A DNA stretch of 24,000 bases from Saltatorellus ferox (GCF_007751475.1 NZ_CP036434.1:3391524-3415523); one strand, 5' to 3'. Positions 6,211 through 20,776 are shown, numbered from the stretch's first letter. Notes: generated from the sequence alone by a model not told the origin. A program made the numbers and translations.

Positions 6211-9200
6211 ATGCTCGTTCAGATTCTGTCTGCATGCGTCCTGTCGCTTCCCCTGCCCCTTCCAGGCGTGTCCAGCGGCTCCGCGGCGCCTCCCCTGGAC
6301 TCCACGTCAGAGCTCGCGCTGGAGGCTGGCCGCGCCGCCGTGAAGCGCGGCCAGCCGGATCGGGCGCGCGAGCACTTCGAGCGCGCCCTCGCGTCGGCGG
6401 AAACACGCGCGGAGGCGGCGTTCGAACTCGGAGAACTCGCGCGCGCGGCGGGCGACGTGGACCGAATGGCCACGGCCGCGCTGATCCACGCCGAAGCGAC
6501 CGTCGACCCCCGCGGTTCTGGCGTCGCCAGCCCGCGCGGCGCCTGGACCATCGGCGGGAAGGAACTCGACGTCCAGGGGCTCGCGAAACGCGCCGCCGCC
6601 GCGCGCGTCCAGCTCGCCAACGCGCTGCTCGGCGTCGCCCAGGACCACGAGTCCAAGGGCTCGCGCTCACCCGAGGACCTTCTGACGGCGGCCTGGTCCC
6701 GGCGCTTCGCGCTGGACCTCGTCCAGCGCACGGCGAGGGTCGCGGAGGCGATGGGTCCAGCGCTCAAGCCGGACGTCTCGGTTCCCGCGGGCGCCCACGG
6801 CCCTGTGCTGAAGGCGCTCGATCGCGTGGGGGCGCGCGCGATCGCGACCGGCGACCTCGGCACGGCGATCCGCGCGGGTCGGATCCTCCGGGGTCTCGGC
6901 GTCCAGGCGGACTTCAGCGACCTGCGCGGAGATCGGCCGAGCGGCATGGCGAAGTGGCGGGCCAAGGGGTCCGATATCCTCGACAAGGCGCGCGAGCGCC
7001 AGGCGGAGCGCTCGGACAAACCGTGGACGGTGGAGGATCTGGAGTGGCTCAGCCTGCACGAGGGCGAGTCGTTCACGCGCAGTCACTCGAGCTTCGCCGA
7101 ACCCGGTGTCGCCGTTTCGCCGCGCGGCTACTACCGGATCGAATCGGACTGCGGGTACGAGACGCTGCTCGCGGTCGCGCGAACCATCGAGGATCACCAC
7201 GAGCGGCTGGCGAACTACTTCGGGTCGGATCCGTTCGTCAGGAACGGGACGAAGGTCGAGCGCCAGGGCCTGATCCGGATCGTGCCGGACCCGAGCGGCC
7301 TCGAGGCCGAGGGTGCGCCGTTCTTCTGGGTCGGCGGCTTCCAGAGCGGAGACACGACCGTCGTGCGCCTGGCCGCGGGCACGATCGAGGGCCTCGGGCG
7401 AACGCTGACCCACGAGCTGACGCACCGCTTCGACGGGGCCCTGCACGGCGGGATTCCGGCCTGGCTCGCAGAGGGTCGCGCGGTCTGGACGGGCGGCGCG
7501 TACGCGCGAATCGAAGACCACAGCTTCGTGGACGACTACGCGTCCCACGGCACGCTCATCAGCGTCGTGAATCGTGGACTGAGCAGCCCGCGAACGCTGA
7601 CGAACATCCTGAGCGGCACGCCCGGGGACTATCGGCAGAACTACAGCGCCGGCAACGCGCTCTACGTCTTCCTTTCGACGTGGTTCCCGGGCAACGCGCC
7701 GTCGATGTCCGGGGGCCAACCGCTGTTCCGCGATCTCCTGCACACGTACGAGGACCAGGGCAAGCACCCGTCGAAGCCCGACGATCTCTTCGAGGAGTTC
7801 GTCGATCACTTCTGCGACGGAAAGAACGGCCGGCCGTCTTCGTTCGACGAGTTCCAGGAGATGTTCACGGAGTTTCTCCGGGGCTTCGCGCTGCGTGAGA
7901 AGGCGCCGTTCACGAAGCGCTACATGAACACGCTGGAGGATCGTGAGGGAGCGACCTGGATCTACGACGAGCCGACCTGGACCTGGGACTGGGTGCGAGC
8001 GGAGCCGCTGTTCGGTCAGAACCAGGCGCGCGAGGCTGGCGCGCTCTTGCTGGAGTTCGGGAAGCCCGAAGAGGCGATCCGCGCGCTCGTCTGGGCGCGC
8101 GCGGTGGACGGATACGATCCGCGTACCGCGGCGTACCTCGTCGAGGCCTTCGAGAAGCTGAAGTCCCCATCGCTGCGCGAACGTGAAGCGCTGTGGACCG
8201 TTCAGCACGAGCGCAACGGCGAGCCGTTCGCCTCGCGCGTGCACGAGAAGTCGGCGCGCGCCCGGCTCGGGGCCTTCCCCGGCGATCTCAAGGCCGTCGA
8301 TGCCTGTCTCGCCGAACTCGGCGCGGTGGCGGCGGCGCTGGCCGCAGGCGGAGCGCCGGAATCCGCGCGCCGGGTGGCGGGCGACGCCGAGCGCGTGGCG
8401 GCCTGGGCCGGAGAGAGGGTCGGAGAGAGGGCCGGAGAGGAGACGGCGGCCCCGGGGGCCGTTGACCAGGCGATCGCGATCCCACCAGGCGAGCCCGACG
8501 AACTCGGTGGCTGGGTCGAGGAGTCCCTGACCCGCCTCGACGAGGATCGACCCGAGGGGCTCTACTTCGTCGAGGACGACGGGACGCTGCTCCTCGGAAG
8601 GAACTCGGCGCGGACGTCGACCGGCCGCTTCGATCGAAACGGCGGCGGTCGCTCCTTCGTGCGCGCGTCGCGCTGGATGCTTCCGGGCACCTACCGAATC
8701 CAGACGCGGATGAACTTCACGACCGCCTACGCCACCGGTCTGATCGTGCTGGGCTGGTCGAGCCGCGAGCGGAACATCCGCATTCCGCTGACCGCAGGCG
8801 ACGTCCAGTACGCGATCGGCGAGTCGGACGAGGAGCCGTCCTTCGACAAGGTGAACTGGCGCTTCGACGGGATGCGTACGCGGGAAGGCGGTCTCTGGAC
8901 CTCCGTCCGAGGCGGCGCCATCGAGCTGGATCCGCCCAGCGCTTCCATCGAGATCGAACTGCTGATCACGGGGCCGGTGGCGAGTCTCTGGATCGCAGGG
9001 CAGTTCGCGGGCTCCTACCACACCGTCGACGGTGCGCCCATCGAGGGCTACGTCGGCTTCGGCACCATGAGCGGTACGATCGCCGTCGCGCCGCCCATCG
9101 TGCGCCGCCTGGACCGCCAGCCCGTGGCGATCCTCGACCTCGATCGCGGAACCGGCCCCGAGTTCGACCGTCTGCGCAACGTCAGCGTCTACTTCGGCGA

Positions 9201-9777
9201 TCAGATGGAGCCGCCGACGAACGGTGCCCTCGTGCTCTGGATCCCGTCGGATGGGAAGGCGGGCTCCATCTCCAGCGCGGACGACGAGGGAGGAGAACTC
9301 TCCGCCGAAGACCAGAGGGACGACATCACGCGCGAGATCGCGCGCGCCCGCCGAACCGCGGTCCAGCTACTGGAGCGAATGTCCCGCAACGGCGTGGGCC
9401 AGCCCCTCGTGGTCGCCTTCCCCCGGCGCTTCGAGAAGGTCCTCGATCGTGCGGCGTTCGACGCCGAACTCCAGGACTCCGCGCCGGAGAACAGCGTTCC
9501 GCCCAGGATCGTGTTCCACGGGGTGACGGACCCCGCCGCTGCCGAGGACGAAGCCTCGGACGAGCACCGCTTCGAAGCGATCGACCAGGGCCGCCGCTGG
9601 CTGATCTTCGTCGACGGCTTCGGCGTCGCTCGGATGTGTCAGACGTTCACGAGCGCGGCCGCGATCAGCCAGCACCAGCTGGAGCACTGGCTGACGGTCT
9701 TCCGCGATCATGGCCGCCCGGAGCGCAAGCTGCCGGAGTTCAGCCGCCCGCCGGCCGAAGAGGACGAAGGGCAGTAG
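6211..9777 (+). CDS. large secreted multidomain protein with HExxH zinc-peptidase-like motif
   Basis: 1188-aa ORF with good codon bias throughout. The hydrophobic N-terminus is MLVQILSACVLSLPLPLPGVSSG. There is an Ala/Arg-rich helical (TPR-like) N-region, and LTHELTHRFDG (HExxH) near residue 400. A region around residues 800-950 (WMLPGTYRIQTRMNFTT...GYVGFGT) resembles a jelly-roll/LamG-like domain. The C-terminal tail is acidic. Beyond the HExxH motif the assignments are weak. Confidence 0.7.
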   Translation: MLVQILSACVLSLPLPLPGVSSGSAAPPLDSTSELALEAGRAAVKRGQPDRAREHFERALASAETRAEAAFELGELARAAGDVDRMATAALIHAEATVDPRGSGVASPRGAWTIGGKELDVQGLAKRAAAARVQLANALLGVAQDHESKGSRSPEDLLTAAWSRRFALDLVQRTARVAEAMGPALKPDVSVPAGAHGPVLKALDRVGARAIATGDLGTAIRAGRILRGLGVQADFSDLRGDRPSGMAKWRAKGSDILDKARERQAERSDKPWTVEDLEWLSLHEGESFTRSHSSFAEPGVAVSPRGYYRIESDCGYETLLAVARTIEDHHERLANYFGSDPFVRNGTKVERQGLIRIVPDPSGLEAEGAPFFWVGGFQSGDTTVVRLAAGTIEGLGRTLTHELTHRFDGALHGGIPAWLAEGRAVWTGGAYARIEDHSFVDDYASHGTLISVVNRGLSSPRTLTNILSGTPGDYRQNYSAGNALYVFLSTWFPGNAPSMSGGQPLFRDLLHTYEDQGKHPSKPDDLFEEFVDHFCDGKNGRPSSFDEFQEMFTEFLRGFALREKAPFTKRYMNTLEDREGATWIYDEPTWTWDWVRAEPLFGQNQAREAGALLLEFGKPEEAIRALVWARAVDGYDPRTAAYLVEAFEKLKSPSLREREALWTVQHERNGEPFASRVHEKSARARLGAFPGDLKAVDACLAELGAVAAALAAGGAPESARRVAGDAERVAAWAGERVGERAGEETAAPGAVDQAIAIPPGEPDELGGWVEESLTRLDEDRPEGLYFVEDDGTLLLGRNSARTSTGRFDRNGGGRSFVRASRWMLPGTYRIQTRMNFTTAYATGLIVLGWSSRERNIRIPLTAGDVQYAIGESDEEPSFDKVNWRFDGMRTREGGLWTSVRGGAIELDPPSASIEIELLITGPVASLWIAGQFAGSYHTVDGAPIEGYVGFGTMSGTIAVAPPIVRRLDRQPVAILDLDRGTGPEFDRLRNVSVYFGDQMEPPTNGALVLWIPSDGKAGSISSADDEGGELSAEDQRDDITREIARARRTAVQLLERMSRNGVGQPLVVAFPRRFEKVLDRAAFDAELQDSAPENSVPPRIVFHGVTDPAAAEDEASDEHRFEAIDQGRRWLIFVDGFGVARMCQTFTSAAAISQHQLEHWLTVFRDHGRPERKLPEFSRPPAEEDEGQ

Positions 9778-9867: not shown

Positions 9868-10881
9868 TCACTGGAACGTCACGGAGTAGCCGTCCGTGAA
9901 GTTCGACGTGGGACCGGACGGGCTGCTGTCGCGGTACCACGCCTGGAAGCTCCAGGTCTCGGAGGCCATCACCGAGACGAAGCCCGTGGGGGTCGGAGTG
10001 GCCGTCAGGTCGAGGGGCAAGCTGATCATGCCGCCGAGGCCAGAGTTCTGGATCTGCCCCGAGCCGACGTAGCGTCCGACGGCGCCGGAGAGGCAGAGGT
10101 TGCCGGAGCTGCCGCCTGGGTTCATCACGAAGCCCTGGGCCTGGCTGGTGATGAAGAAGCAGAAGGCGAGCTGGGGCAGGCTATCGGCCAGGAGCGTCAC
10201 GTCATTGTCCGCAGCAGTCGCGCTTCCGGTGGCCCGGATGCGGGCCGACTGACCCGTGGAGTTCGGGTTCGCCGTGCAGTACGACGTGCCGAGACCGGCG
10301 CCCGGATCCGCGAAGGTGGCGAGGAATCGAAGGTCCTTGCTCTCGGTGTGCGGTGCACGGTTGGCGATGATCGAAGTGCCGCGATAGGCGTCGTTCGGCG
10401 CCGTCTGTCCGTCGAACTCCTGAAGGGAACGCGGCACCGTGTTGGTCGGGTTGACGTCCATCGGCGAGCTGGAGAGCACGCACCAGTATTCGGTGCCGGC
10501 GTTGAGTCTCAACGAGTCGAACGTCCAGGCGAGCTCCGTGTAGTTCGCGAGGCCTGCCGCCGAACTGGTGTCGACGAAGTTGCTGGAGGAACCAATGAGG
10601 TTGGCGGTGTCGGGGTCGCCGTCATAGACCGCGATGTAGGTGGTGGCGTGGCCGGTGCCACCCAGGTTGCCCGTCCAGAAGCTGAGGCCGATCAGGTCCA
10701 GCGTGGGCGTGTTCATGTAGCCAACGACGTCTTCCGGGAAGAACGACTGCCCCGAACCGAGGCCACCGAGGGAACTCGGGTTGTTCGTGGCGCTGAAGTC
10801 GATGGTCAATTGCATCGACGAGGCATCGCTGGCGGTCAGGCCGAGGAAGACGGCTGCGAGGAAAGAGGCTGGCAGATTCAT
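9868..10881 (-). CDS. secreted protein of unknown function
   Basis: 337-aa ORF with signal peptide MNLPASFLAAVFLGLTASDASS. The composition is Gly/Ser/Thr/Asn-rich with low charge. The C-terminal ~130 aa (YCTANPNSTGQSARI...GNLCLSG...WSFQAWYRDS...SNFTDGYSVTF) contain paired Cys and look like a discrete beta-rich module. No family name that I can support. Confidence 0.7.
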   Translation of the reverse strand: MNLPASFLAAVFLGLTASDASSMQLTIDFSATNNPSSLGGLGSGQSFFPEDVVGYMNTPTLDLIGLSFWTGNLGGTGHATTYIAVYDGDPDTANLIGSSSNFVDTSSAAGLANYTELAWTFDSLRLNAGTEYWCVLSSSPMDVNPTNTVPRSLQEFDGQTAPNDAYRGTSIIANRAPHTESKDLRFLATFADPGAGLGTSYCTANPNSTGQSARIRATGSATAADNDVTLLADSLPQLAFCFFITSQAQGFVMNPGGSSGNLCLSGAVGRYVGSGQIQNSGLGGMISLPLDLTATPTPTGFVSVMASETWSFQAWYRDSSPSGPTSNFTDGYSVTFQ

Positions 10882-11201: not shown

Positions 11202-12065
11202 TCAGGTCAGCTGGCCGAAGCGGCGCAGGTGCTTCTTCTTCACCTGAACCCAGGTGAGGAAGTCGATCGTTCCGAACTCATGATCGATGGCGGGCGGGCC
11301 GAGGACCAGCGCTCCGTTGCGCAGGTACGACGCGAAGAGCTTGGGGATCTCCACGTCGCCCGTGCCGGAACCGCCCTTGCGCAGCGGCCAGTCGAGGAGC
11401 GGGCAGGCCGTCGCGAGACGCGGCGGGGCGTAGAGCGTCGGGTGGACCTTGTCGTCGGCGAGGAGCTTCGCGTAGAGCGCGATGCCCTTGAGCGGGTCCG
11501 TTCCCGTGAGCGAGCTGCAGCCGAAGAAGGCCTCGGCGCCCACGTGCTGCTGATAGGCGATCAGACCCTGCCAGAGGAGGAACAGGACGCTCTTGTGACG
11601 GTGGGGACGCGCCACGCAGGCGCGGCCCAGCTCGACCGCGCGGTTCAGCGTATCCAGAGGAATGCGATCGAGTTCGAACTCGCCCGAGGTGTACCAGCCG
11701 TGACCGGCGGCAGCGGACTCGGCCGTTTGCATCCGGTAGGTCCCGATCACCGCGCCGGTCTCTACGTGGAGGACCATGAGATGCTGGCACTGGCGGTCGA
11801 AGGCGTCGGCATCGAGGCCGGTCTCGTGGGCGCCGTTGAGGCCCTCACCCAGCTCGACGTTGAAGACCGCGTAGCGGAGTCGGCGGACGGCTTCGAGGTC
11901 CGAGCCGGTCCGCGCGAAGCAGAGTCGGTAGGGGCCGAGCGTGACGTCGATGGACGGGACGAGATCGATGCCGTAAAGCAGATCCTCGCTGCCGGATCGG
12001 GTGGCGGCTGGCTGCATACGGGAGATCGGATCTCCGGAGAACGGGCCTTGGCTGCGTGAGGGCAT
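11202..12065 (-). CDS. OlsB-like GNAT-family lipid N-acyltransferase (hemolysin-like/Acetyltransf_5 type)
   Basis: C-terminal 287 aa of track ORF 11202..12683. The core LRYAVFNVELGEGLNGAHETGLDADAFDRQCQHLMVLHVETGAVIGTYRM and the tail IDHEFGTIDFLTWV are characteristic of ornithine/glycine-lipid N-acyltransferases. The start is placed at ATG 12065 (MPSRSQG...), with an alternative ATG at 12017. Neither has a clear SD. Confidence 0.75.
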   Translation of the reverse strand: MPSRSQGPFSGDPISRMQPAATRSGSEDLLYGIDLVPSIDVTLGPYRLCFARTGSDLEAVRRLRYAVFNVELGEGLNGAHETGLDADAFDRQCQHLMVLHVETGAVIGTYRMQTAESAAAGHGWYTSGEFELDRIPLDTLNRAVELGRACVARPHRHKSVLFLLWQGLIAYQQHVGAEAFFGCSSLTGTDPLKGIALYAKLLADDKVHPTLYAPPRLATACPLLDWPLRKGGSGTGDVEIPKLFASYLRNGALVLGPPAIDHEFGTIDFLTWVQVKKKHLRRFGQLT

Positions 12066-12208
12066 GGGAAGGGGGGGCGGGTTCGCGGTGGCTATGCCTG
12101 GATGGGGGAAGGGAGAGAGGGCCGCGCCAGCCCCGGACCCGTTTATACGGTGCGTTCGGCCCGGGACGATCAAGGGGTCGTGCAGATATCGTGAGCCTTT
12201 ACGGCCCC

Positions 12209-14830
12209 CTACGTCCTGTGGGACCGTTGTTTTCGCCGATATCGAACCCATTCGCGAAGAACCTGGCCGGCGCTCGCCTTGGGGGCCCCCGCGGCCGCGT
12301 TGCGGGCGCCGATCGAGTAGGCGAGCGCCCACTGCGCGAAGAGGATCCGATAGGAGGCCAGGATCGAGTGCTTCGGGTCGTAGAGGTTGGTCGCCTCGGA
12401 CGTCACGCCGTTGAGTTCGATCACGCCGAGGCTCTCCCCCCGGGCGAGATGCTCCGCCGAGGGAGCGCGCAGATCGTAGCGGCCGAAGAAGAAGCCCTCG
12501 TAGCCGCGGGACAGCTCCTCGACCGCTGCTTCGAGCTCGGGCGTGATGAGGTGGGCGCCCTCCAGGAAGAGCGCGCCGCGCGCGTGGGTGCCGACCTTCA
12601 CGAGCTGGACCTTCTCGCCGGGCGCAGGCACCTCGCTCGCGCGTTTTCCCAGCTCCTTCAGGTACGTCGCGTGGAGCGCGCACGCGCGCGGATCGTCCAG
12701 CAGCAGCTCCTCGACGGTGCGCTTCCCGTCGCCCTTGACCTCGGGCAGCACCTTGGTCGTGATCGCGAAGATCGAGCCCTTTTCCTGGCCCGGCTCGCGC
12801 GTGTAGAAAACGCCGAACTCCTCGCCGTCGAGTCGCTCTTGGAGCAGCGCGTCATGGTCGAGCGCGCGCACGCGTTCCACGAGATCTACCTCGCTCTTCA
12901 CGGAGGCAACGCCGGACCCGCGCTGGCCCTCGTTGGGTTTCAGGATGACCGGATAGTCGAGCGCGTGCTTCCCCATGAACGCGAGCGCGGCCTCGGCGCG
13001 GGCGTCGGGGCCAGCGGCTGCCTCGAGCAGCACGAACAGAGGGACCTCCGGTCGATCCACCCCGAGTCCTTCCAGGATTTCCGCCTTCGATTCGCCGATC
13101 AGCCCGCCCATGGGCATGGCCGGATTCGACGCGGTGAAAGCGAACGCGCCACGGTGCTTGATCGACAGCCAGACGAGCCACGGAACGAGCGGCAGGTAGG
13201 CGACGTAGGGGGGCCAGAACTCGAAGCGTGTCAGCCTCAGCCACTTGCCGCGCAAGAGGCGCCGTCCCTTGTGCGTGAAGAGCAGCGGCAGAAGACGGTA
13301 CGCCTGCAGCAGCACCACGATGAGCGCAAGGATGAACGGGAGCTGGCGCGCCCCCAGGCCTCCGATGGCTTCGGCCAGCTGCTCGCCCGCGAGCGCCGCG
13401 ATACCGACGAGCGCCGGCGTCCAAAGGAGGCCGGCGACCGCGAAGAACAGCGCGAACGTCGCGAAGCGCGTTCGCAGCACGCCCGCGGCCACGTAGGTGG
13501 GGAGGCGTAGCCCTGGCGTGAAGCGCGAGAGGAAGATGACGCCGATGCCCTTGGACTCGAACCACTGGCTCGCCCGCTCGACGGCCTCATCGGACACGAA
13601 CCAGCGGAACGGACGGCGGCGCAGCGCGGGGCGACCGAAGGTACGACCCAGGAGATAGAGCCCGATGTCGCCGACGAAGATCCCGACGAAGCAAGCGAGC
13701 GACGCGGCCACGAAGCCTATGCGGCCGTCGGCCACGAGGAGCCCCGCCGCGATGCACGCGAGGTCCTCGGAGACGAACGTCGCGACCGCGAGCAGCGCGA
13801 GGATCGTCAGAAGCGCCGGGCCCTCGAACGGCGGCACCTGCGCCGGATCGAAGGGCTCAGCCGCCAGCGCCCGCGCTTCGCCGGGCAGGTCCGATCGCCG
13901 CGGTGCCTCGCCAGCCTCGACGCGGTCCACGAACCGCGCGATCAAGGTCGCCACTCGCTCCGTTTGCAACCAGGGAAGGAAGTGGCTCGCGGGGCTGTCG
14001 AGCACGATGAGATCGGCCTGGGGCACGATGCGCGCGTGCTCCTCTGCGGCGGCCACGGGCACGAGGAAATCGTCTTCACCGTGGAGGATCAGCGTCGGGA
14101 CGTCGAGTGCCTCCAGGATGGGCCGGAGCCGCCGCTGGTCGGTGTCGTAGAAGTTGCGGCCGTACGGGACGCCGAGCATGGCCCGGTCGAACGCGCCGAA
14201 GTGGGGGACGAGCCAGCGCAGCGCTCGGAGCGCGCCCAGCTGGAGCCCGTGGATGCCGTGGTTGAGCGTATGGCCTCCGAGGAGCTCCAGCTCGATCACG
14301 CCGATGGCGGCGAGCAGCGTCAGCGACTCGACCCGCTCGGGCGCGCGGTCGATCATCTCCAGCGCGACGCCGCCGCCCATGCTGAAGCCGACGGCGTGCA
14401 CGCGCTCGATACCGAGTTCGTCCATCAGCTCGAGGCAGTAGCCCGCGTGGGCGCGCACCGAGACGTCGGGGATGTCTTTCGACGACTGTCCGAAGCCGGG
14501 CAGGTCGGGGGCGATCAGGCGGAAACGGTCGCGCAACAGCGGGACCACGTCGCGGAAATCGCTGCCGGAGCCAGGGCTGCCCTGGAGTAGCAAGAGCGCG
14601 GGCGCGGCCTTCGGCCCCGCGTCGAGGTAGGCGATCCGGACCGAGGCGTCGGTGCCGGGAGGCGAGGTCTCAAGTCCGTCCGAACCGAGAGCTGGCACGG
14701 TGGTGAAGGCAAAACCCGCGCGCGGCGCTTCGGGCGCGGGCGCTCGCCCGAGCATGGTCGCCCAGGAAACAGCGAGCGCGAGCGCGTAGAGACCGAGGAC
14801 GATCTTCCAGGCGGAGAACCGGCGCTTCAC
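12209..14830 (-). CDS. tri-domain membrane protein: alpha/beta-hydrolase + DedA/VTT (SNARE-associated) domain + ATP-grasp carboxylate-amine ligase
   Basis: Track ORF 12209..15076 trimmed to GTG 14830 (VKRRFSAWKIVLGLYALALAVSW, an N-terminal TM anchor), because upstream codons overlap the better-coding NRDE gene.
- Hydrolase domain: LLLLQGSPGSGSDF, nucleophile elbow GFSMGG, HGEDDFLVP (Asp), SPASHFLPW (His).
- DedA/VTT domain: FVSEDLACIAAGLL...FVGDIGLYLLGRTFG...FLSRFTPGLRLPTYVAAGV.
- Two further TM helices follow.
- ATP-grasp domain: YPVILKPNEGQRGSGVASV...GVFYTREPG...GRYDLRA...GVIELNGVTSEATNLYDP.
Total 873 aa. Confidence 0.75.
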   Translation of the reverse strand: MKRRFSAWKIVLGLYALALAVSWATMLGRAPAPEAPRAGFAFTTVPALGSDGLETSPPGTDASVRIAYLDAGPKAAPALLLLQGSPGSGSDFRDVVPLLRDRFRLIAPDLPGFGQSSKDIPDVSVRAHAGYCLELMDELGIERVHAVGFSMGGGVALEMIDRAPERVESLTLLAAIGVIELELLGGHTLNHGIHGLQLGALRALRWLVPHFGAFDRAMLGVPYGRNFYDTDQRRLRPILEALDVPTLILHGEDDFLVPVAAAEEHARIVPQADLIVLDSPASHFLPWLQTERVATLIARFVDRVEAGEAPRRSDLPGEARALAAEPFDPAQVPPFEGPALLTILALLAVATFVSEDLACIAAGLLVADGRIGFVAASLACFVGIFVGDIGLYLLGRTFGRPALRRRPFRWFVSDEAVERASQWFESKGIGVIFLSRFTPGLRLPTYVAAGVLRTRFATFALFFAVAGLLWTPALVGIAALAGEQLAEAIGGLGARQLPFILALIVVLLQAYRLLPLLFTHKGRRLLRGKWLRLTRFEFWPPYVAYLPLVPWLVWLSIKHRGAFAFTASNPAMPMGGLIGESKAEILEGLGVDRPEVPLFVLLEAAAGPDARAEAALAFMGKHALDYPVILKPNEGQRGSGVASVKSEVDLVERVRALDHDALLQERLDGEEFGVFYTREPGQEKGSIFAITTKVLPEVKGDGKRTVEELLLDDPRACALHATYLKELGKRASEVPAPGEKVQLVKVGTHARGALFLEGAHLITPELEAAVEELSRGYEGFFFGRYDLRAPSAEHLARGESLGVIELNGVTSEATNLYDPKHSILASYRILFAQWALAYSIGARNAAAGAPKASAGQVLREWVRYRRKQRSHRT

Positions 14831-14833
14831 GGG

Positions 14834-14857
14834 AGCGGACAAGTCAGCGGACAAGTC
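14834..14857. repeat. perfect tandem duplication of a 12-mer (AGCGGACAAGTC x2)
   Basis: 14834-14845 and 14846-14857 are identical. On the minus strand this reads GACTTGTCCGCT twice. It spans the NRDE-gene stop codon and the 25-nt spacer before the fusion-gene GTG, and it creates two in-frame TGA codons 12 nt apart. Confidence 0.9.
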
Positions 14858-15647
14858 AGGCGCCGCTGCGCGGCAGGTCCAGCGCGACGGAGACCTCCGT
14901 CGCATGGGGCGGGCCCGGGCGGTACTCGAAGTGGACGTTCGACTTCGTGACGACGATGTGGCACTGGCTCCGCGTGGCTGCGTCCGCGCGCTGCATCGTC
15001 GGCGTGAAAGCCGTCGGGCCACGCTCGGCGTCCACGTGACGCTGGAAGGCAGCGAGTCTCTCGGGATCCGGCGCATCGGCGCGCTTTTTCTCCTCTCCGC
15101 CGAGGACCAGAGAGGTGTAGAGCGCGCGCCTCGAAAGCTGGACCTCGTCCTGCTCGAAGCTGGAGGACGTGAGCGGCAGCTGGCGCTCGCCGCTGACGTC
15201 GATGGCCACGGTCAGTCCATCCCAGCGCGCGACGAGCGCGGGATCGCCCGGCGCCTTCAGCACCACGACCGCCGGCCGGTAGGGCGCCAGCTCGTGCGGT
15301 GACAGCATCGCGAGCGACTCGAGCGGACGCTCCAGCGACGCCAGCAGGCGAACGAGCGCTCCGCGGCTCTGGTAGTGCTCCAGCGTCGGGCCGCGGCTCA
15401 CGATGTAGCCGTTGAGGAGCGCCACCGTCAGCCCGTGTTCGTTCGCCGCGATCCAGGTACCGCCCGCCTCGCTGTCCCCCGGTGCGATGTAGCGCACGCC
15501 CTCCGGCGAGGTCTGGATCCGCGGCGGGATCTCGGGACCACGCGTCAGCAGCTCATCCCGGTTGAACCAGAGCGAATAGCCCGACTCCTCCGGATCAGGG
15601 GGCGAATCCTCACCAGCGCGCTGGCTCGTCCAGGTCAGCGTGCACAC
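14856..15647 (-). CDS. NRDE/TANGO2-family protein with N-terminal Cys
   Basis: C-terminal 263 aa of track ORF 14856..16349. The start is placed at GTG 15647, so the protein begins (M)CTLTWTSQ..., followed about 30 aa later by WFNRDE. This is the MC...NRDE pattern of the NRDE/TANGO2 family. The rest of the 497-aa ORF upstream is Arg/Pro-rich and overlaps the DinB-like gene in another frame. Confidence 0.7.
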   Translation of the reverse strand: MCTLTWTSQRAGEDSPPDPEESGYSLWFNRDELLTRGPEIPPRIQTSPEGVRYIAPGDSEAGGTWIAANEHGLTVALLNGYIVSRGPTLEHYQSRGALVRLLASLERPLESLAMLSPHELAPYRPAVVVLKAPGDPALVARWDGLTVAIDVSGERQLPLTSSSFEQDEVQLSRRALYTSLVLGGEEKKRADAPDPERLAAFQRHVDAERGPTAFTPTMQRADAATRSQCHIVVTKSNVHFEYRPGPPHATEVSVALDLPRSGA

Positions 15648-16207
15648 GTTTCGCTCGCCCGCTTCGCCTCGGCCTGCTGTGCCCAGTAGCGAATCGTCGA
15701 GGGCGCCACGCCGAACTCCGATCCAGGATCGCCGCCGCCCGACCGGACGGCGACGGCGATCAGCGCGTAGTGGTGGACCGTGTGGCTGACGAGCGACTGA
15801 AGTTCGCGGCTCACGTTCGACGGGACCCAGGGGGATCCGTCGGAGCGCACGCGGAGGGCCGCGTCGTTCCTGACCCGGTCGATGCTGGCGGCGCGCTGCA
15901 AGCGCTCGATCGTCGTCCGCAAGACCGCGGTCGCATACTCGGGATCGATCTCCACGCGAGGGTCGCGCTCCCGTGCGTCGTAGTCGACCTCGGGCACCTC
16001 GTTCGGGCCGAGTTCCGTCCGCTCCACCGCGGCCAGGAGGCGCTGGTAGAAGTCCACGACGTGCCGCAGGTGCGGCCCGACGCCAGACAGGGCGAGCGCG
16101 GGGGCGTTCTCCGTGAACTGGGCGGAGTCGAGGGCTGAGACGAGGGCCACTCCCTGGCGAAGGACCGCCAGGTTGTCGTCGATCAGCTGCTGTACGGTGG
16201 ACGTCAT
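15635..16207 (-). CDS. DinB-like (DinB_2 four-helix-bundle, metal-binding His) protein
   Basis: 190-aa ORF MTSTVQQLIDDNLAVLRQGVALVSAL... with spaced His motifs (GPHLRHVVDFY, VSHTVHHYALI) typical of the DinB superfamily. Its ATG overlaps the upstream PlsC stop (ATGA, 16204-16207). Its 3' end overlaps the NRDE start by 13 nt. Confidence 0.6.
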   Translation of the reverse strand: MTSTVQQLIDDNLAVLRQGVALVSALDSAQFTENAPALALSGVGPHLRHVVDFYQRLLAAVERTELGPNEVPEVDYDARERDPRVEIDPEYATAVLRTTIERLQRAASIDRVRNDAALRVRSDGSPWVPSNVSRELQSLVSHTVHHYALIAVAVRSGGGDPGSEFGVAPSTIRYWAQQAEAKRASETCAR

Positions 16208-17085
16208 CGGGACGTGATCGGAGTCGTGGGGCCGGCCGAGGAGTCAGCTTTGGAATCGGCCGCCGCGTCAGCGGCGGTGGCTCCCTGGCTGGCGGCTTCC
16301 CGAGAAGGGGTGAAGCAGCGTTCCGTGGCCAGCTGGGCGGCCTGGGCAAGCGCTTTACGGGCGCCGGCTTCGCTCTTCTCGGGCGTGCGGAGGATTTCGG
16401 GGGAGAAGGTTACGGTGGCGACGGTTCGGGGCTGATTCAAGAACGTGAGGAAATGCGACCCGAAAGGGGCGTCTCCCCACCAGCAGACGGCCTCCCAGGC
16501 CGGCCTGGGGCCCCGGGGGGCGTGATAGTGGAGAGCGGCGACCCGGACCGGCACCCCTGTTTCGACGGGGACCTCGAACAGTGACGGCTTGAATCGTTCT
16601 ACCTGGGAGCCGTCGGTGCTCGTGCCCTCGGGGAAGACGATGACGCCGGGGCCGCGGGCCAGGACGCTCTTCACCTCGGTGATCACGCGGGTCAGGTCGC
16701 GCTTGCGGCTGCGGTCCACGAAGAGCGTGCCCGTGCTGCGCGCCAGGAACCCGAGGACCGGCCAGCTGGCGATCTCGCTCTTCGCCAGGAACCGAGCGTC
16801 GAGCCGGCTCAGGAGGAGCGGGATGTCGACGTACGAGAGGTGATTGGCCACCAGGAAGTAGGCTTCCTCCTCGCCGGCGCGCCTGGGCACGGGGCCCTCG
16901 AAGCGCGCTTCCACGCCCATGATCCAGAGCACCGCGCGGGCCCAGGTCCCGATCCAGAGCCGCTGCAACGGCGCATCCGTGCCAGGGATGAGCCAGGCGA
17001 CGGGCCGCGTGAGGAGCCACCCGAGGAAGAGTGGGACCGTGACGCACGGCAGGAGCAGCAGTCGTAGGAGGACCCGGAGGGACAT
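16204..17085 (-). CDS. PlsC-family lysolipid O-acyltransferase (OlsA-like)
   Basis: 293-aa ORF with an N-terminal TM segment, the HX4D acyltransferase motif (ANHLSYVD), FVDRS and the VFPEGTST motif. The C-terminal tail is Ala/Ser-rich. Confidence 0.8.
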   Translation of the reverse strand: MSLRVLLRLLLLPCVTVPLFLGWLLTRPVAWLIPGTDAPLQRLWIGTWARAVLWIMGVEARFEGPVPRRAGEEEAYFLVANHLSYVDIPLLLSRLDARFLAKSEIASWPVLGFLARSTGTLFVDRSRKRDLTRVITEVKSVLARGPGVIVFPEGTSTDGSQVERFKPSLFEVPVETGVPVRVAALHYHAPRGPRPAWEAVCWWGDAPFGSHFLTFLNQPRTVATVTFSPEILRTPEKSEAGARKALAQAAQLATERCFTPSREAASQGATAADAAADSKADSSAGPTTPITSR

Positions 17086-17167: not shown

Positions 17168-18922
17168 CTACTTCTTGCCCGTCCGCCCGCTGGCGGACAC
17201 CTGGCTCGGCGAATCAGGTGCAGCCTTGGGAAAGGCCACCGCGACCGCCTGGCTCGGCTGGGCCGCCACGGGGGCCGTGGTGGGCTCCTGGCCGCTGGCC
17301 GTGCAGGTCACCGTCATGGGCTGACCGGGGCGGATGAGGTAGCGGCGCGGCTGAAGCGATTCCGCGTCTCGGCCCGTGAACGTGAGCGCCCGATGGTCGC
17401 CGGACAGCTCCACCGTGGCCCGGGCCCAGGCCTTGCGGCCCTCCTCGCTCTGGCGCCATTCCACGGGGCATTGAACGCTCAGGCCGACGACGGGGGCCCG
17501 CGCGACCTGCGGCCCTCCCGAGACCACGAGATTCTGGTCGAGCGGCTCCCGGTCGCCGAACGGCGACACCACGTCCACGAGGTGGATGCCGGCGTGAAGT
17601 CCCTCCAGAATGGCCTCCCCCGACGCGGTCGACTCGGCGAGCGCGCTCACCCGTGCCAGGCCGATCGGCTGGAGTTCGACCCCGCCTTTCCGACAGACCT
17701 GGGCATTCACATCCGGTGACCGCGCGGAGGACTTGACGAAGACGAATCCATCGACCTGGACAGGGAGTCCCCGGGCATCGAAAACGGAGATGACAGAGGG
17801 GTCCACTCTTGCCTGGAGCTGACAGCCCGCCACCGGTTCCTGGAAGGGATCGAGGACTTCGAAGCGGTGCCTGGGCGGCCTGATCCCTCGCAGCGTGGTC
17901 GGGACCTGCACCACGTTCTCCGGGTCGTCGTCGCCTTCCAGCAGCGCGGAGACGTCGATCAGATCCCCCGCCATCGCGGGCGATTCCGGGATCCCGAGGA
18001 TGACGGTCCACGTGGACTCCGTGGTGAAGCGGAGCATCGGCGCGCGCCGCGCTTCCCTTTCGCCGAAGGAGAGCGAGTCCAGCACCTGCACGTCACCGTT
18101 CTCCCTGATCGTGACGAGGGCGCAGCGCCCCGAGAACGACTTGCGAACCTCCCCGGGCCGGGGCCGGTCGGCCGGTCTCGACGCCAGGCGCAGACGGCCA
18201 TCCATCGGGACGAGCGTCACGGTGGGCGTGGCGGTGAACGTCAGGCCGTCCATGCCCCAGCTGCTGGGATAGATCTTGACGCTGGTCGGCAGCGCGTCCA
18301 AATGGTCGACGGTCAGCACGACGACAGGAGCGTCTTGAACCGGGCGATCCACGAGCTGGACCGAGGGTTGTTCCAGGAGGAACCCACTCCCCGTCGCGCG
18401 GCTGCCGCCGTAGTCCGCGATCAGCTGGACCGGATGGCCAGGATCGAAGAGGCGGATCCGATGGGCGTCGATGAGCGGGCGAATGATGAAGGAGGCTTTT
18501 ATCTCAGCAGGTGCTGGCGGAAGCGCGTAGCCGAGCGTCTCGAGTTCCTTCTTCTTCGCGCGCCTCTCCCGCCGGCCGGGCCTGCTCTGGTCCCGAACCA
18601 AGTCCCCGGAGGGGGAATTCTCGGAGCGTTCGGGCGGTGGCTCCGAGCCCATCGCGCGTGCGGCGCGGTCGGGGAGATCGGTCAGGGCGACCTCAGCGGT
18701 TCGTACCTCGGCCGCTGCGGGCGGGTCGCCTGCGAAAGCAATGGTGGCGGGCAGCGTCTCGGACTGGCCGCGCTCCAACGAACGCACGACGCCGAACGCG
18801 ATAAGGGCCACCGCAGCGACGGCGGCTGCGATCCTGAGAGCGTTCTTACGCTGGCGAGCGGAGCGAGCATTCATGCGGGCAGCGGGGAAGAAGTGAGGAG
18901 GTCTGCGACCTGTCGCGGTCAC
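17168..18922 (-). CDS. membrane-anchored protein of unknown function
   Basis: 584-aa ORF with good third-position bias. It has a basic N-terminus followed by one TM helix (ALRIAAAVAAVALIAFGVV), a charged linker (RRERRAKKKELE), then a ~430-aa predicted extracytoplasmic beta-rich region. GTG 18922 overlaps the stop of the upstream small ORF (GTGA). An alternative ATG lies at 18874 (MNARSARQRKN...). Confidence 0.6.
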   Translation of the reverse strand: MTATGRRPPHFFPAARMNARSARQRKNALRIAAAVAAVALIAFGVVRSLERGQSETLPATIAFAGDPPAAAEVRTAEVALTDLPDRAARAMGSEPPPERSENSPSGDLVRDQSRPGRRERRAKKKELETLGYALPPAPAEIKASFIIRPLIDAHRIRLFDPGHPVQLIADYGGSRATGSGFLLEQPSVQLVDRPVQDAPVVVLTVDHLDALPTSVKIYPSSWGMDGLTFTATPTVTLVPMDGRLRLASRPADRPRPGEVRKSFSGRCALVTIRENGDVQVLDSLSFGEREARRAPMLRFTTESTWTVILGIPESPAMAGDLIDVSALLEGDDDPENVVQVPTTLRGIRPPRHRFEVLDPFQEPVAGCQLQARVDPSVISVFDARGLPVQVDGFVFVKSSARSPDVNAQVCRKGGVELQPIGLARVSALAESTASGEAILEGLHAGIHLVDVVSPFGDREPLDQNLVVSGGPQVARAPVVGLSVQCPVEWRQSEEGRKAWARATVELSGDHRALTFTGRDAESLQPRRYLIRPGQPMTVTCTASGQEPTTAPVAAQPSQAVAVAFPKAAPDSPSQVSASGRTGKK

Positions 18923-19463: not shown

Positions 19464-19513
19464 ATACCTTGACAATCCAGGTATCACCGTCTATACCTGG
19501 ATTATCAAGGTAT
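19464..19513 (+). promoter_or_regulatory. PadR-gene promoter overlapped by nested palindromic operator
   Basis: ATACCT-N9-AGGTAT occurs at 19464-19484 and again at 19493-19513. The two units are themselves inverted copies: the 18-nt arms 19467-19484 and 19493-19510 match 17/18. TTGACA lies at 19469-19474, and after 17 nt comes TATACC at 19492-19497. The last hexamer overlaps the ATG at 19512, which implies a very short leader or a leaderless transcript. Confidence 0.6.
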
Positions 19514-19838
19514 GAGTGTATTTCCCAAAGGCGCCCTGGACCTGCTCGTGCTCAAGGTCCTCCAGTCCCAGAGCCTGCACGGCTACGGGATCGCGGCGCG
19601 CATCCAGGAGCTGAGTGAGGAGGTCCTCGCCGTCGAGGAGGGCACCCTTTACCCGGCCTTGCACAGGATGGAGCGCACGGGCTGGATCAAGTCGAGCTGG
19701 CAGCCGAGCCCCACGGGGCGGCGCGCGCGCTTCTACGAGCTGACGGGCAAGGGGCGCAAGTACCTCGCGGCCGGCGTGAGCGAGTGGGAGACCACGAACC
19801 GAGCCATCGGTCGCGTGCTGGGAACGGAGCCCGCATGA
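19512..19838 (+). CDS. PadR-family transcriptional regulator
   Basis: 108-aa ORF. LDLLVLKVLQSQSLHGYGIAARIQELSEEVLAVEEGTLYPALHRMERTGWIKSSW...RRARFYELTGKGRKYL is a canonical PadR winged helix. Confidence 0.9.
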   Translation: MSVFPKGALDLLVLKVLQSQSLHGYGIAARIQELSEEVLAVEEGTLYPALHRMERTGWIKSSWQPSPTGRRARFYELTGKGRKYLAAGVSEWETTNRAIGRVLGTEPA

Positions 19839-20776
19839 GTCGAGACCAGGCCGCCTTCGAGTTCGGTGAAGACGACGCGCCCGCGCGTTCGGAGCGCGAG
19901 CGCATCGAGCAAGAGATCGATGAGGAGATCCGCTTTCACCTCGAAGCGCGCGCCCGCGCGCTGGAGGAAGCCGGCCTCGACGCGAGGGCGGCGCATCGAA
20001 CGGCGCTCGCGTACTTCGGCGACCGGCGCCGGATCCGCCGGGCCTGCCTCGTCCAACGCCAATGGAGACCCATCATGCTGCAGAGACTTCATCTCGCGAC
20101 CACCGTCCTCCTGCTCGTCGCCGCGGCGATCCTCGGCGCGCGCTCCCTGCTGGCGGAAGCTGCCTACGAGTCACGCCTGGAGGAGCTTGGTGAAGCTGTC
20201 GAGCGCTTGCAGGCGTCCGCTTCGGCAAGTCTTGCTCCTGGCGCCATCGTTGCGCCCGGTCTTCCTCCAAAGCGGGTCGACCTGTCGACCATCGCTGTGG
20301 GCGACGTCCTGGAAGTGAGGAATGAGGCCCATCAAGACCTTCATGTCGTCTGCTCGGTGTGCTATGACGGCATGATTCTCTTGCCGCAGCTGGGCTGGTT
20401 CATGGCCGCTGGCAAGACACTTCCGGTCATCGATGCGGAGCTCAACACAGCCTTCTACGCCTACTACACCACGGCTCCGAAGATCGTCACGATGCTGAAA
20501 GAGGCAGCACTCATTCGGGTCGAGCCCGATTCGGATCGTCCCATCGCACCCGGCGATTACCTCCGTCTCTATGATGAGGCGCATCCATTCGACGTCAACT
20601 TCACCATCATGGTGGATCCAGACGGGACACTGCTTCTGGATCAGCTAGGCCGTTTTCACGTGGCCGGGTACACCCGCAGTGATCTGGAGACGATCCTGGT
20701 GGACCGCTCCCGACCATTCTTCACCGAGGAGCCCGTGATCCGCGTCACGGTAACGGACGCACCCCGCCCCAAATAG
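19835..20776 (+). CDS. PadR-coupled membrane protein: permease-prefix-like N-terminus, one TM, two Poly_export/SLBB-like repeats
   Basis: Track ORF 19784..20776 trimmed to ATG 19835, which overlaps the PadR stop (ATGA).
- The N-terminus ERIEQEIDEEIRFHLEARARALEEAGLDARAAHRTALAYFGD resembles the cytoplasmic prefix of PadR-associated permeases.
- TM helix: LHLATTVLLLVAAAILGA.
- Two repeats follow of the pattern GD.L.....E......V..DG...LP.LG....AG.T: GDVLEVRNEAHQDLHVVCSVCYDGMILLPQLGWFMAAGKT and GDYLRLYDEAHPFDVNFTIMVDPDGTLLLDQLGRFHVAGYT. Confidence 0.65.
   Translation: MSRDQAAFEFGEDDAPARSERERIEQEIDEEIRFHLEARARALEEAGLDARAAHRTALAYFGDRRRIRRACLVQRQWRPIMLQRLHLATTVLLLVAAAILGARSLLAEAAYESRLEELGEAVERLQASASASLAPGAIVAPGLPPKRVDLSTIAVGDVLEVRNEAHQDLHVVCSVCYDGMILLPQLGWFMAAGKTLPVIDAELNTAFYAYYTTAPKIVTMLKEAALIRVEPDSDRPIAPGDYLRLYDEAHPFDVNFTIMVDPDGTLLLDQLGRFHVAGYTRSDLETILVDRSRPFFTEEPVIRVTVTDAPRPK

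Follow-up and report, generated by a model that had tools for sequence, protein, structure and literature searches.

The locus described here raises the question of what a bacterium does with an alpha/beta-hydrolase-DedA-ATP-grasp fusion protein, a TANGO2-like protein of the NRDE family and a DinB-like protein that are encoded between two acyltransferases of the types known from aminolipid synthesis. It lies in a stretch of 24,000 nucleotides (nt) from Saltatorellus ferox (GCF_007751475.1 NZ_CP036434.1:3391524-3415523), hereafter termed the window; the G+C content of S. ferox DNA is about 68%. The five co-directional minus-strand genes that the original prediction had read from the sequence were all found by gene calling, with the following coordinates counted from the first nucleotide of the window (the three parts of the fusion are listed below the fusion gene):

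16204-17085, minus strand: PlsC-like protein, 293 amino acids (aa), PF01553
15635-16207, minus strand: DinB-like protein, 190 aa
14856-15647, minus strand: NRDE protein, 263 aa, GTG start, beginning M-C-T-L-T-W, PF05742
12209-14830, minus strand: hydrolase-DedA-ATP-grasp fusion, 873 aa
13931-14830, minus strand: fusion residues 1-300, signal-anchor helix and alpha/beta-hydrolase (Abhydrolase_1)
13226-13840, minus strand: fusion residues 331-535, DedA/VTT membrane domain (PF09335)
12209-13225, minus strand: fusion residues 536-873 and stop codon, hydrophobic hairpin and ATP-grasp domain (profile and structure search)
11202-12065, minus strand: OlsB-like protein, 287 aa, PF13444

The genes are tightly packed. 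The PlsC-like and DinB genes overlap in the sequence ATGA (16204-16207), the DinB and NRDE genes overlap by 13 nt (15635-15647), and gaps of 25 nt and 143 nt separate the NRDE gene from the fusion gene and the fusion gene from the OlsB-like gene, respectively. All four junctions are exactly as first described. The NCBI annotation starts the fusion gene four codons earlier, which results in a protein of 877 aa. The fusion protein of the window has 100% identity to a protein of S. ferox, a planctomycete (strain Poly30).

We consider it likely that this cassette acts on N-acyl-amino-acid lipids. The PlsC-like protein matched PF01553 of Pfam (3.5e-21) and contains the motifs NHLSYVD (HX4D) and FPEGTS, and its residues H82, D87 and E153 were each kept in 55 of 55 homologues, in agreement with the proposed PlsC/OlsA-like O-acyltransferase. 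The OlsB-like protein, proposed to be an N-acyltransferase, matched PF13444 (Acetyltransf_5) at 3.7e-27. In NCBIfam the PlsC-like protein matched OlsA (2.5e-39, 135 bits, below the equivalog cut-off of 300) and the OlsB-like protein matched two OlsB models (7.5e-35 and 4.1e-34). Both the OlsA and the OlsB models align over their full length to the window proteins, the latter covering residues 46-277 of 287. By these matches the OlsB-like protein is a member of the OlsB family, but its scores of 121 and 118 bits fall well short of the cut-offs (350 and 320) and do not justify the name ornithine N-acyltransferase. Its predicted product is an N-(3-hydroxyacyl) amino acid formed from acyl-acyl carrier protein.

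A survey of related genomes had been set beforehand as the check on the arrangement, which was found to be strongly kept across phyla. One genome per species was scanned with an alignment of the ATP-grasp domain. Relatives were found in at least 578 species and 80 loci were kept (numbered with the prefix L), in which open reading frames (ORFs) were called and searched with hidden Markov models built from the window proteins. Fifty loci, each from a different species, had enough flanking DNA to be informative; they belong mainly to Planctomycetota and Acidobacteriota, and also to Verrucomicrobiota, Calditrichia and others. Counting partners within 5 kilobases (kb) of the ATP-grasp, an OlsB-like gene was present in 42 of the 50 loci (same strand in 39) and a PlsC-like gene in 41, with 39 loci containing both. 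DinB was found in 35 and NRDE in 26 loci (52%), always on the same strand as the ATP-grasp. A DedA domain accompanied the ATP-grasp in 49 loci and was fused to it in 46, while a hydrolase domain was present in 35 (70%) and fused in 34. The hydrolase domain and NRDE are thus optional parts of the cassette. Chance adjacency was rejected, because the cassette recurs in dozens of species from several phyla.

The canonical gene order outside the window is OlsB-PlsC-DinB-(NRDE)-[hydrolase]-DedA-ATP-grasp with all genes co-directional, and it was observed in Planctomycetota, many classes of Acidobacteriota, Calditrichia, Verrucomicrobiota/Opitutales, Gemmatimonadales and others. The OlsB-like gene is located downstream of the fusion in the Saltatorellus clade alone (the window, L003, L005, L006, L008, and L009). 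The bracketing by the two acyltransferases, which the original prediction described, is therefore true of the window but specific to this clade, whereas the content of the cassette is not. Three architectures of the fusion were found: a three-domain protein of about 870 aa, a DedA-ATP-grasp protein of about 550 aa, and an ATP-grasp of about 373 aa beside which DedA is encoded by a gene of its own (L055 and L079). Several cassette-bearing metagenome-assembled genomes (MAGs) are labelled Paracoccaceae, Heliobacteriaceae or Heliomicrobium (L003, L010, L015, L027, L038, L039, L053, L057, and L064). As their cassette proteins resemble those of Planctomycetota and Acidobacteriota, these labels may reflect mis-binning or mis-classification.

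Further contexts were reached through homologues of the NRDE protein. One such locus (L088) had the canonical layout. In a MAG of Pseudomonadales (L084:387-3547) the DinB and NRDE genes directly precede a bifunctional synthase of the OlsF type (612 aa; NCBIfam OlsF 4.6e-112, 375 bits, below the cut-off of 620), and no ATP-grasp was present on the 5.3-kb contig. The association of DinB and NRDE with aminolipid synthases accordingly extends to a contig that shows no ATP-grasp. In a MAG of Verrucomicrobiae (L086:6001-9373) the NRDE gene, a DedA-ATP-grasp gene (600 aa) and an acyltransferase gene of the GlsA/OlsF-N type (Acyltransf_2) follow one another, with no OlsB-like gene adjacent. A Kiritimatiellia locus (L083) and another MAG (L085) carry DinB, NRDE and the fusion with no synthase genes adjacent. 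The occurrence of three acyltransferase architectures, of the OlsB/OlsA, OlsF and GlsA types, beside the tailoring genes is the strongest argument for aminolipid substrates.

The C-terminal domain of the fusion was difficult to place by sequence. Nothing in Pfam was above threshold (best ATP-grasp_4 0.022, Dala_Dala_lig_C 0.056, and RimK 0.17), the best NCBIfam match was cyanophycin synthetase with 26 bits against a cut-off of 850, and the search for a curated family in Pfam, NCBIfam and PDB sequences returned only weak matches at the superfamily level. Profile and structure searches were therefore needed to confirm the fold. A profile from an alignment of 32 homologues matched CphA2 (9e-7), GshAB (3e-6), CphA1 and Ddl in PDB, at values from 9e-7 to 4e-5. 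An AlphaFold (AF2) model of the domain (mean confidence, pLDDT, 87.5) gave 333 Foldseek matches in PDB at E<=1e-3; the top 50 matches listed were all ATP-grasp ligases, led by CphA1 (8e-11), CphA2, GshAB and Ddl. On the model the domain is one with an ATP-grasp fold. K96 (in VLKP), E136, R249, D251, E270 and N272 (in ELNG) were invariant in 84 of 84 sequences, and the Lys, the Glu and the Mg-binding Glu/Asn pair (E-x-N) expected of ATP-grasp ligases are all present.

Clustering of this domain with a family of known non-lipid function had been named beforehand as the finding that would speak against the proposal. What was found was a family of 1647 clusters at 50% identity (E<=1e-30) that no curated model describes; judged by these comparisons it is a large family of its own, unnamed and with no Pfam or NCBIfam model. 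It has its fold in common with the G domain of cyanophycin synthetase, the C-terminal domain of GshAB and Ddl (Foldseek 8e-11 to 1e-6), as well as the ATP- and Mg-binding residues. It differs from them in having only about 18% identity, in being fused to DedA and in the replacement of the N-terminal substrate domain. The nearest relatives (cyanophycin synthetases, GshAB, Ddl, and ArgX) all attach an amino acid to a free carboxylate. The large N-terminal substrate domain that is usual in ATP-grasp ligases is absent, and a short region behind a membrane hairpin is found in its place, which fits a substrate presented from the membrane. The hairpin is hydrophobic and Pro-rich (WEFWPPY...) with positive charge on both flanks, and the stand-alone ATP-grasp forms of about 373 aa retain it. 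Throughout the survey the ATP-grasp was membrane-tethered, either by fusion to DedA or with a DedA gene adjacent. A second 'ATP-grasp' at the Engelhardtia mirabilis locus (L080:14561-17362, minus strand) was rejected as a family member, being an ordinary full cyanophycin synthetase with a weak cross-match (4.9e-6). It is located about 3.5 kb downstream of the cassette and is probably unrelated to it.

The middle domain of the fusion matched PF09335 (6.6e-19, 69 bits, gathering score 33.9). It carries two re-entrant-loop motifs, FVSEDL and RFxPGxRxP, in which E25, D26, R106, P109, G110 and R112 were invariant among 80-81 homologues. The N-terminal domain matched Abhydrolase_1 (6.5e-29) and Abhydrolase_6 (8.6e-17) and has the triad Ser150 (GxSxG), Asp254 and His283, conserved in 59 of 60, 62 of 62 and 62 of 62 sequences, respectively. 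The topology was assessed by an analysis of hydrophobicity and charge and by comparison with two-domain homologues. A signal-anchor helix preceded by KRR is found at residues 10-28, and loops 395-425 and 518-540 contain seven K/R each. The three-domain fusions have this extra N-terminal helix with K/R residues ahead of it; the two-domain homologues, which lack helix and hydrolase, start with a short acidic segment that runs straight into the first re-entrant motif of DedA. The hydrolase is thus probably periplasmic, DedA in the membrane, and the ATP-grasp cytoplasmic and hugging the membrane.

The gene described at the outset as TANGO2-like proved to be one. Its product, annotated as 'NRDE family protein' (Poly30_24780) at NCBI, scored 29 bits with PF05742 (gathering score 22.6), the family profile matched human TANGO2 in PDB (8sv7 and 9bwa, 3e-5), and the AF2 model (pLDDT 93) was matched by Foldseek to TANGO2 (9bwa and 8sv7, 5e-9). 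CV2077, isopenicillin-N acyltransferase, penicillin V acylase and bile-salt hydrolases were also among the matches; the last three cleave or exchange acyl-amino-acid amide bonds. The motif is N29-R30-D31-E32, with R-D-E conserved in 39 of 39 and C2 in 23 of 23 sequences. The protein is predicted from its modelled alpha-beta-beta-alpha fold to be a Cys N-terminal-nucleophile (Ntn) amidase or acyltransferase with Cys2 as the nucleophile. Pfam membership, Cys2 and the NRDE motif are common to human TANGO2, CV2077, Shewanella HtpA and the cassette protein, the predicted fold of which agrees with the TANGO2 crystal structures. Humans deficient in TANGO2 suffer from severe metabolic disease. What the protein does is contested, with heme trafficking (PMC10470608), acyl-CoA binding (PMC11867700) and a Cys-Ntn hydrolase of fatty-acid derivatives (PMC13044924) all proposed, and an amidase or acyltransferase activity is unproven even for the human protein (PMC13044924). 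The cassette protein differs in its location in a putative aminolipid operon, a context unmentioned in the TANGO2/NRDE papers found. One NRDE homologue (L087:6001-6819, 38% identity to the window protein) stands alone among unrelated genes, so some members of this subfamily occur outside cassettes.

For the DinB gene the assignment holds for the family and less so for the individual protein. The window protein matched DinB_2 at 3.5e-4 with 21.4 bits, which is below the gathering score of 24.8, whereas 14 of 16 family members matched DinB_2 (best 1e-9) and the family profile matched a DinB-like protein in PDB (3dka, 2.5e-4). H49, H142, H145 and H146 were invariant, and this putative DinB-superfamily protein, presumably a four-helix bundle, is probably a metalloenzyme. 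As far as the sequences tell, the catalytic motifs are intact in all cassette components.

Extension of the operon beyond the five genes was rejected on both sides. The upstream gene for a 584-aa protein (17168-18922, minus strand, no family match) is conserved only in the two closest relatives, with homologues at that position in L004 and L006 only, and the downstream gene for a 337-aa protein (9868-10881) has a homologue in no other locus surveyed. The former ends 82 nt upstream of the PlsC-like gene and could be co-transcribed with it. A gene convergent with the OlsB-like gene (6211-9777, plus strand) encodes a protein of 1188 aa that has TPR repeats at its N-terminus and an HExxH region with a weak resemblance to Peptidase_MA. 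It is kept in eight loci of the Saltatorellus clade, so this synteny is probably lineage-specific. Further away a PadR-family regulator (19512-20776, plus strand; 8.5e-24) overlaps the start of a 330-aa ORF with a Poly_export domain. An Rfam search of the window gave no matches, and a scan of the window for promoters and terminators was uninformative in this GC-rich DNA.

The extras that de novo clustering of the neighbours in the other loci revealed were all restricted to particular lineages. One of them, a protein of about 246 aa with the motif HELGH (HExxH) and a weak Peptidase_M48 match (1.9e-3), is encoded directly downstream of the fusion and co-directional with it in 18 loci (L025:7348-8088 and 17 other Acidobacteriota-type loci), and it was also found in loci without OlsB/PlsC (L026, L037, and L072). 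A small DoxX_2 membrane protein is encoded near the cassette in 15 loci. A contig of Acidobacteriota (L002:2149-3264) has an enolase-superfamily gene (MR_MLE_N/C) at the NRDE position, between DinB and the fusion. It was rejected as a regular cassette member, as it was unique to this locus among 83 loci. The enolase superfamily includes N-acyl-amino-acid racemases and dipeptide epimerases.

How does the cassette relate to what is known of aminolipids? The modifications of ornithine lipid listed in a review of March 2026 are three hydroxylations, N-methylation and taurine transfer, and the known tailoring enzymes are the hydroxylases OlsC, OlsD and OlsE and the methyltransferase OlsG (PMC12971839). 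This agrees with the earlier statement that no ATP-grasp is among them. According to the same review, the transfer of taurine to ornithine lipid, which yields cerilipin in Gluconobacter cerinus, needs ATP and has no gene assigned to it, and the Ser-Gly lipid is made by way of glycine lipid, with no ligase named (PMC12971839). Literature searches for ornithine lipid or DedA together with ATP-grasp found nothing relevant, and in those for TANGO2 with ornithine lipid and for Blastocatellia lipidomes neither the cassette nor its product was described in anything found. The OlsBA-type pathway is known; the cassette itself is undescribed in the searchable literature and its tailoring module is new.

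The cassette has in common with the OlsB/OlsA pathway of ornithine lipid, and with GluB/OlsA for glutamine and GlsB/GlsA for glycine lipids, an Acetyltransf_5 protein and a PlsC-type protein with HX4D and FPEGT, and in most cassette loci the genes for the N- and O-acyltransferase are adjacent and co-directional as in that pathway. It differs from it by three to four extra conserved genes, none of which is OlsC/D/E or OlsG (PMC12971839). The taurine step of cerilipin and the addition of serine in flavolipin/Lipid 654 extend the head group at the carboxylate, as we propose for the cassette, and the ATP requirement of the taurine step is the chemistry that an ATP-grasp would supply. Among the loci examined the cassette was seen in Planctomycetota, Acidobacteriota, Verrucomicrobiota and others, and not in Acetobacteraceae or Bacteroidota. 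A third route of synthesis uses OlsH (GH3-like) and OlsI, an alpha/beta-hydrolase O-acyltransferase (PMC12971839). As found in Singulisphaera acidiphila, it is a planctomycete aminolipid route that, like the cassette, includes an alpha/beta-hydrolase and an ATP-using amide-forming enzyme (PMC12971839). OlsH is, however, an adenylating enzyme of the GH3 type that releases AMP and PPi and not an ATP-grasp, and the cassette keeps the OlsB/OlsA types; the two are set apart here by description only.

We think it quite possible, though short of probable, that the five genes constitute a single, conserved pathway in which an acyloxyacyl amino-acid lipid is made and its head group subsequently altered at the inner membrane, the ATP-grasp ligating an amine or amino acid to the carboxylate, DedA translocating the lipid, and the hydrolase, NRDE and DinB editing or recycling it. 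The OlsB-like enzyme would N-acylate an amino acid with a 3-hydroxyacyl chain, and the PlsC/OlsA-like enzyme would esterify the 3-hydroxyl to give a lipid with a free carboxylate. The membrane-anchored cytoplasmic ATP-grasp would then activate this carboxylate as an acyl phosphate (ATP to ADP and Pi) and join an amine or a second amino acid to it, by which the head group would be extended and its negative charge removed. The fused DedA domain may move the lipid across the membrane, and the periplasmic Ser-Asp-His hydrolase, the cytoplasmic NRDE Cys-Ntn amidase or transacylase and DinB could trim, edit or recycle it. The translocation step would parallel MprF, an aminoacyl-phosphatidylglycerol synthase (DUF2156, GNAT-like) fused to a flippase, which transfers the amino acid from aminoacyl-tRNA and beside homologues of which periplasmic aminoacyl-phosphatidylglycerol hydrolases are encoded (PA0919 and AcvB). 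The resemblance, by analogy, would be that of a cytoplasmic head-group enzyme fused to a lipid-translocating domain with a periplasmic alpha/beta-hydrolase as partner. The protein families are unrelated, and the cassette would use ATP-dependent ligation by an ATP-grasp with DedA instead of transfer from aminoacyl-tRNA. The more specific proposal that the DedA-fused ATP-grasp is the first ATP-dependent aminolipid head-group ligase, its own DedA the flippase of the product and NRDE a Cys-Ntn amidase or transacylase directed at the N-acyl-amino-acid bond of these lipids is in our view doubtful as a whole.

Several observations weigh against the pathway outlined above. The scores of the OlsB- and OlsA-like proteins are far under the equivalog cut-offs (121 versus 350 and 135 versus 300 bits), and the amino acid and the acyloxyacyl product are both unproven. 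Six of the 50 informative loci had no OlsB or PlsC within 5 kb, and L083 and L085 carry DinB, NRDE and the fusion without them, which implies that the tailoring module can occur apart from the synthase genes. In NCBIfam DedA was matched best by UptA, a transporter of undecaprenyl phosphate, which points to a different lipid, although the score is far under the cut-off (1.1e-18, 68 bits, cut-off 250) and shows no more than a resemblance. The topology of the fusion was read from charge and hydrophobicity, the DinB protein cannot be given a role, and no lipid product is known for any cassette-bearing organism, hence there is no experimental link.

The ATP-grasp might instead work ahead of the OlsB-like enzyme and, in the manner of L-amino-acid ligases, make at the membrane a head-group precursor for that enzyme to N-acylate (for example a dipeptide, or an amino acid that is amidated or modified in another way), with DedA, the hydrolase, NRDE and DinB serving in export and editing. 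Its nearest relatives Ddl and GshAB are amino-acid and dipeptide ligases on soluble substrates, the divergent OlsB-like protein (121 versus 350 bits) could accept an unusual acceptor, and the synteny fits this order of events equally well as an extension of the finished lipid. A ligase for a soluble precursor has no obvious need of a membrane fusion, however, yet 46 of 49 are fused; the stand-alone forms keep the hydrophobic hairpin, and the ATP-grasp has no counterpart to the large N-terminal domain with which Ddl and GshB bind their first soluble substrate. We therefore find this order unlikely. These considerations concern the timing of the ligation; two other explanations take the module away from head-group extension. 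The adjacency of about 84% to aminolipid acyltransferases across distant phyla, and the three acyltransferase architectures (OlsBA, OlsF, and GlsA), are poorly explained if the genes adjoin merely through one regulon of envelope remodelling and the module acts on an undecaprenyl-phosphate-linked intermediate, phosphatidylglycerol or a component of lipoprotein or peptidoglycan. We give that explanation little weight, even though UptA is the best curated match of DedA, as this match is so far under its cut-off, and even though the module is found with no adjacent OlsB or PlsC in L083, L085, L026, L037 and L072.

The module may also serve turnover or homeostasis and create no new head group, with NRDE cleaving the N-acyl amide, the hydrolase the ester-linked chain, and the ATP-grasp re-ligating or salvaging the parts, like the hydrolases beside MprF homologues. 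Among the middle components, two have the fold of hydrolases and an intact nucleophile, and DinB and NRDE accompany the OlsF-type synthase in L084 with no ATP-grasp in view. NRDE was commoner where a fused hydrolase was absent (14 of 18 loci) than where it was present (21 of 48 loci; Fisher p = 0.025, not corrected for phylogeny), a weak signal that hints at overlapping roles of NRDE and the hydrolase. Nevertheless, the synthase genes are accompanied most constantly by the ATP-grasp-DedA pair, a biosynthetic type of enzyme, and ATP-grasp enzymes are not known to form fatty-acyl amides. Turnover as the sole function is accordingly improbable, and extension of the head group of an N-acyl-amino-acid lipid is the reading that we carry forward.

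Head-group-extended aminolipids were recognised decades ago, and an ATP-dependent extension has been demonstrated biochemically, with no gene assigned to it (PMC12971839). The ATP-grasp, which the scan found in at least 578 species, offers a concrete candidate for this class of enzyme. If our more specific proposal is true, it would be the type of enzyme long missing for cerilipin-like and lipodipeptide lipids, and the NRDE protein would provide the first native substrate class for the TANGO2 family. For the widespread DedA proteins few substrates are known, and the fusion of a DedA domain between two enzymes, in a lipid operon, points to a specific cargo. A TANGO2-family member in an operon for N-acyl-amino-acid lipids likewise suggests a class of substrate and offers a simple bacterial test system. 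Three open questions, the head-group ligase of aminolipids, the cargo of a DedA protein and the substrate of TANGO2, are thereby made testable. Given how frequent the cassette is in Acidobacteriota and Planctomycetota, the lipid that it yields may be abundant and so far unrecognised in soil and sea.

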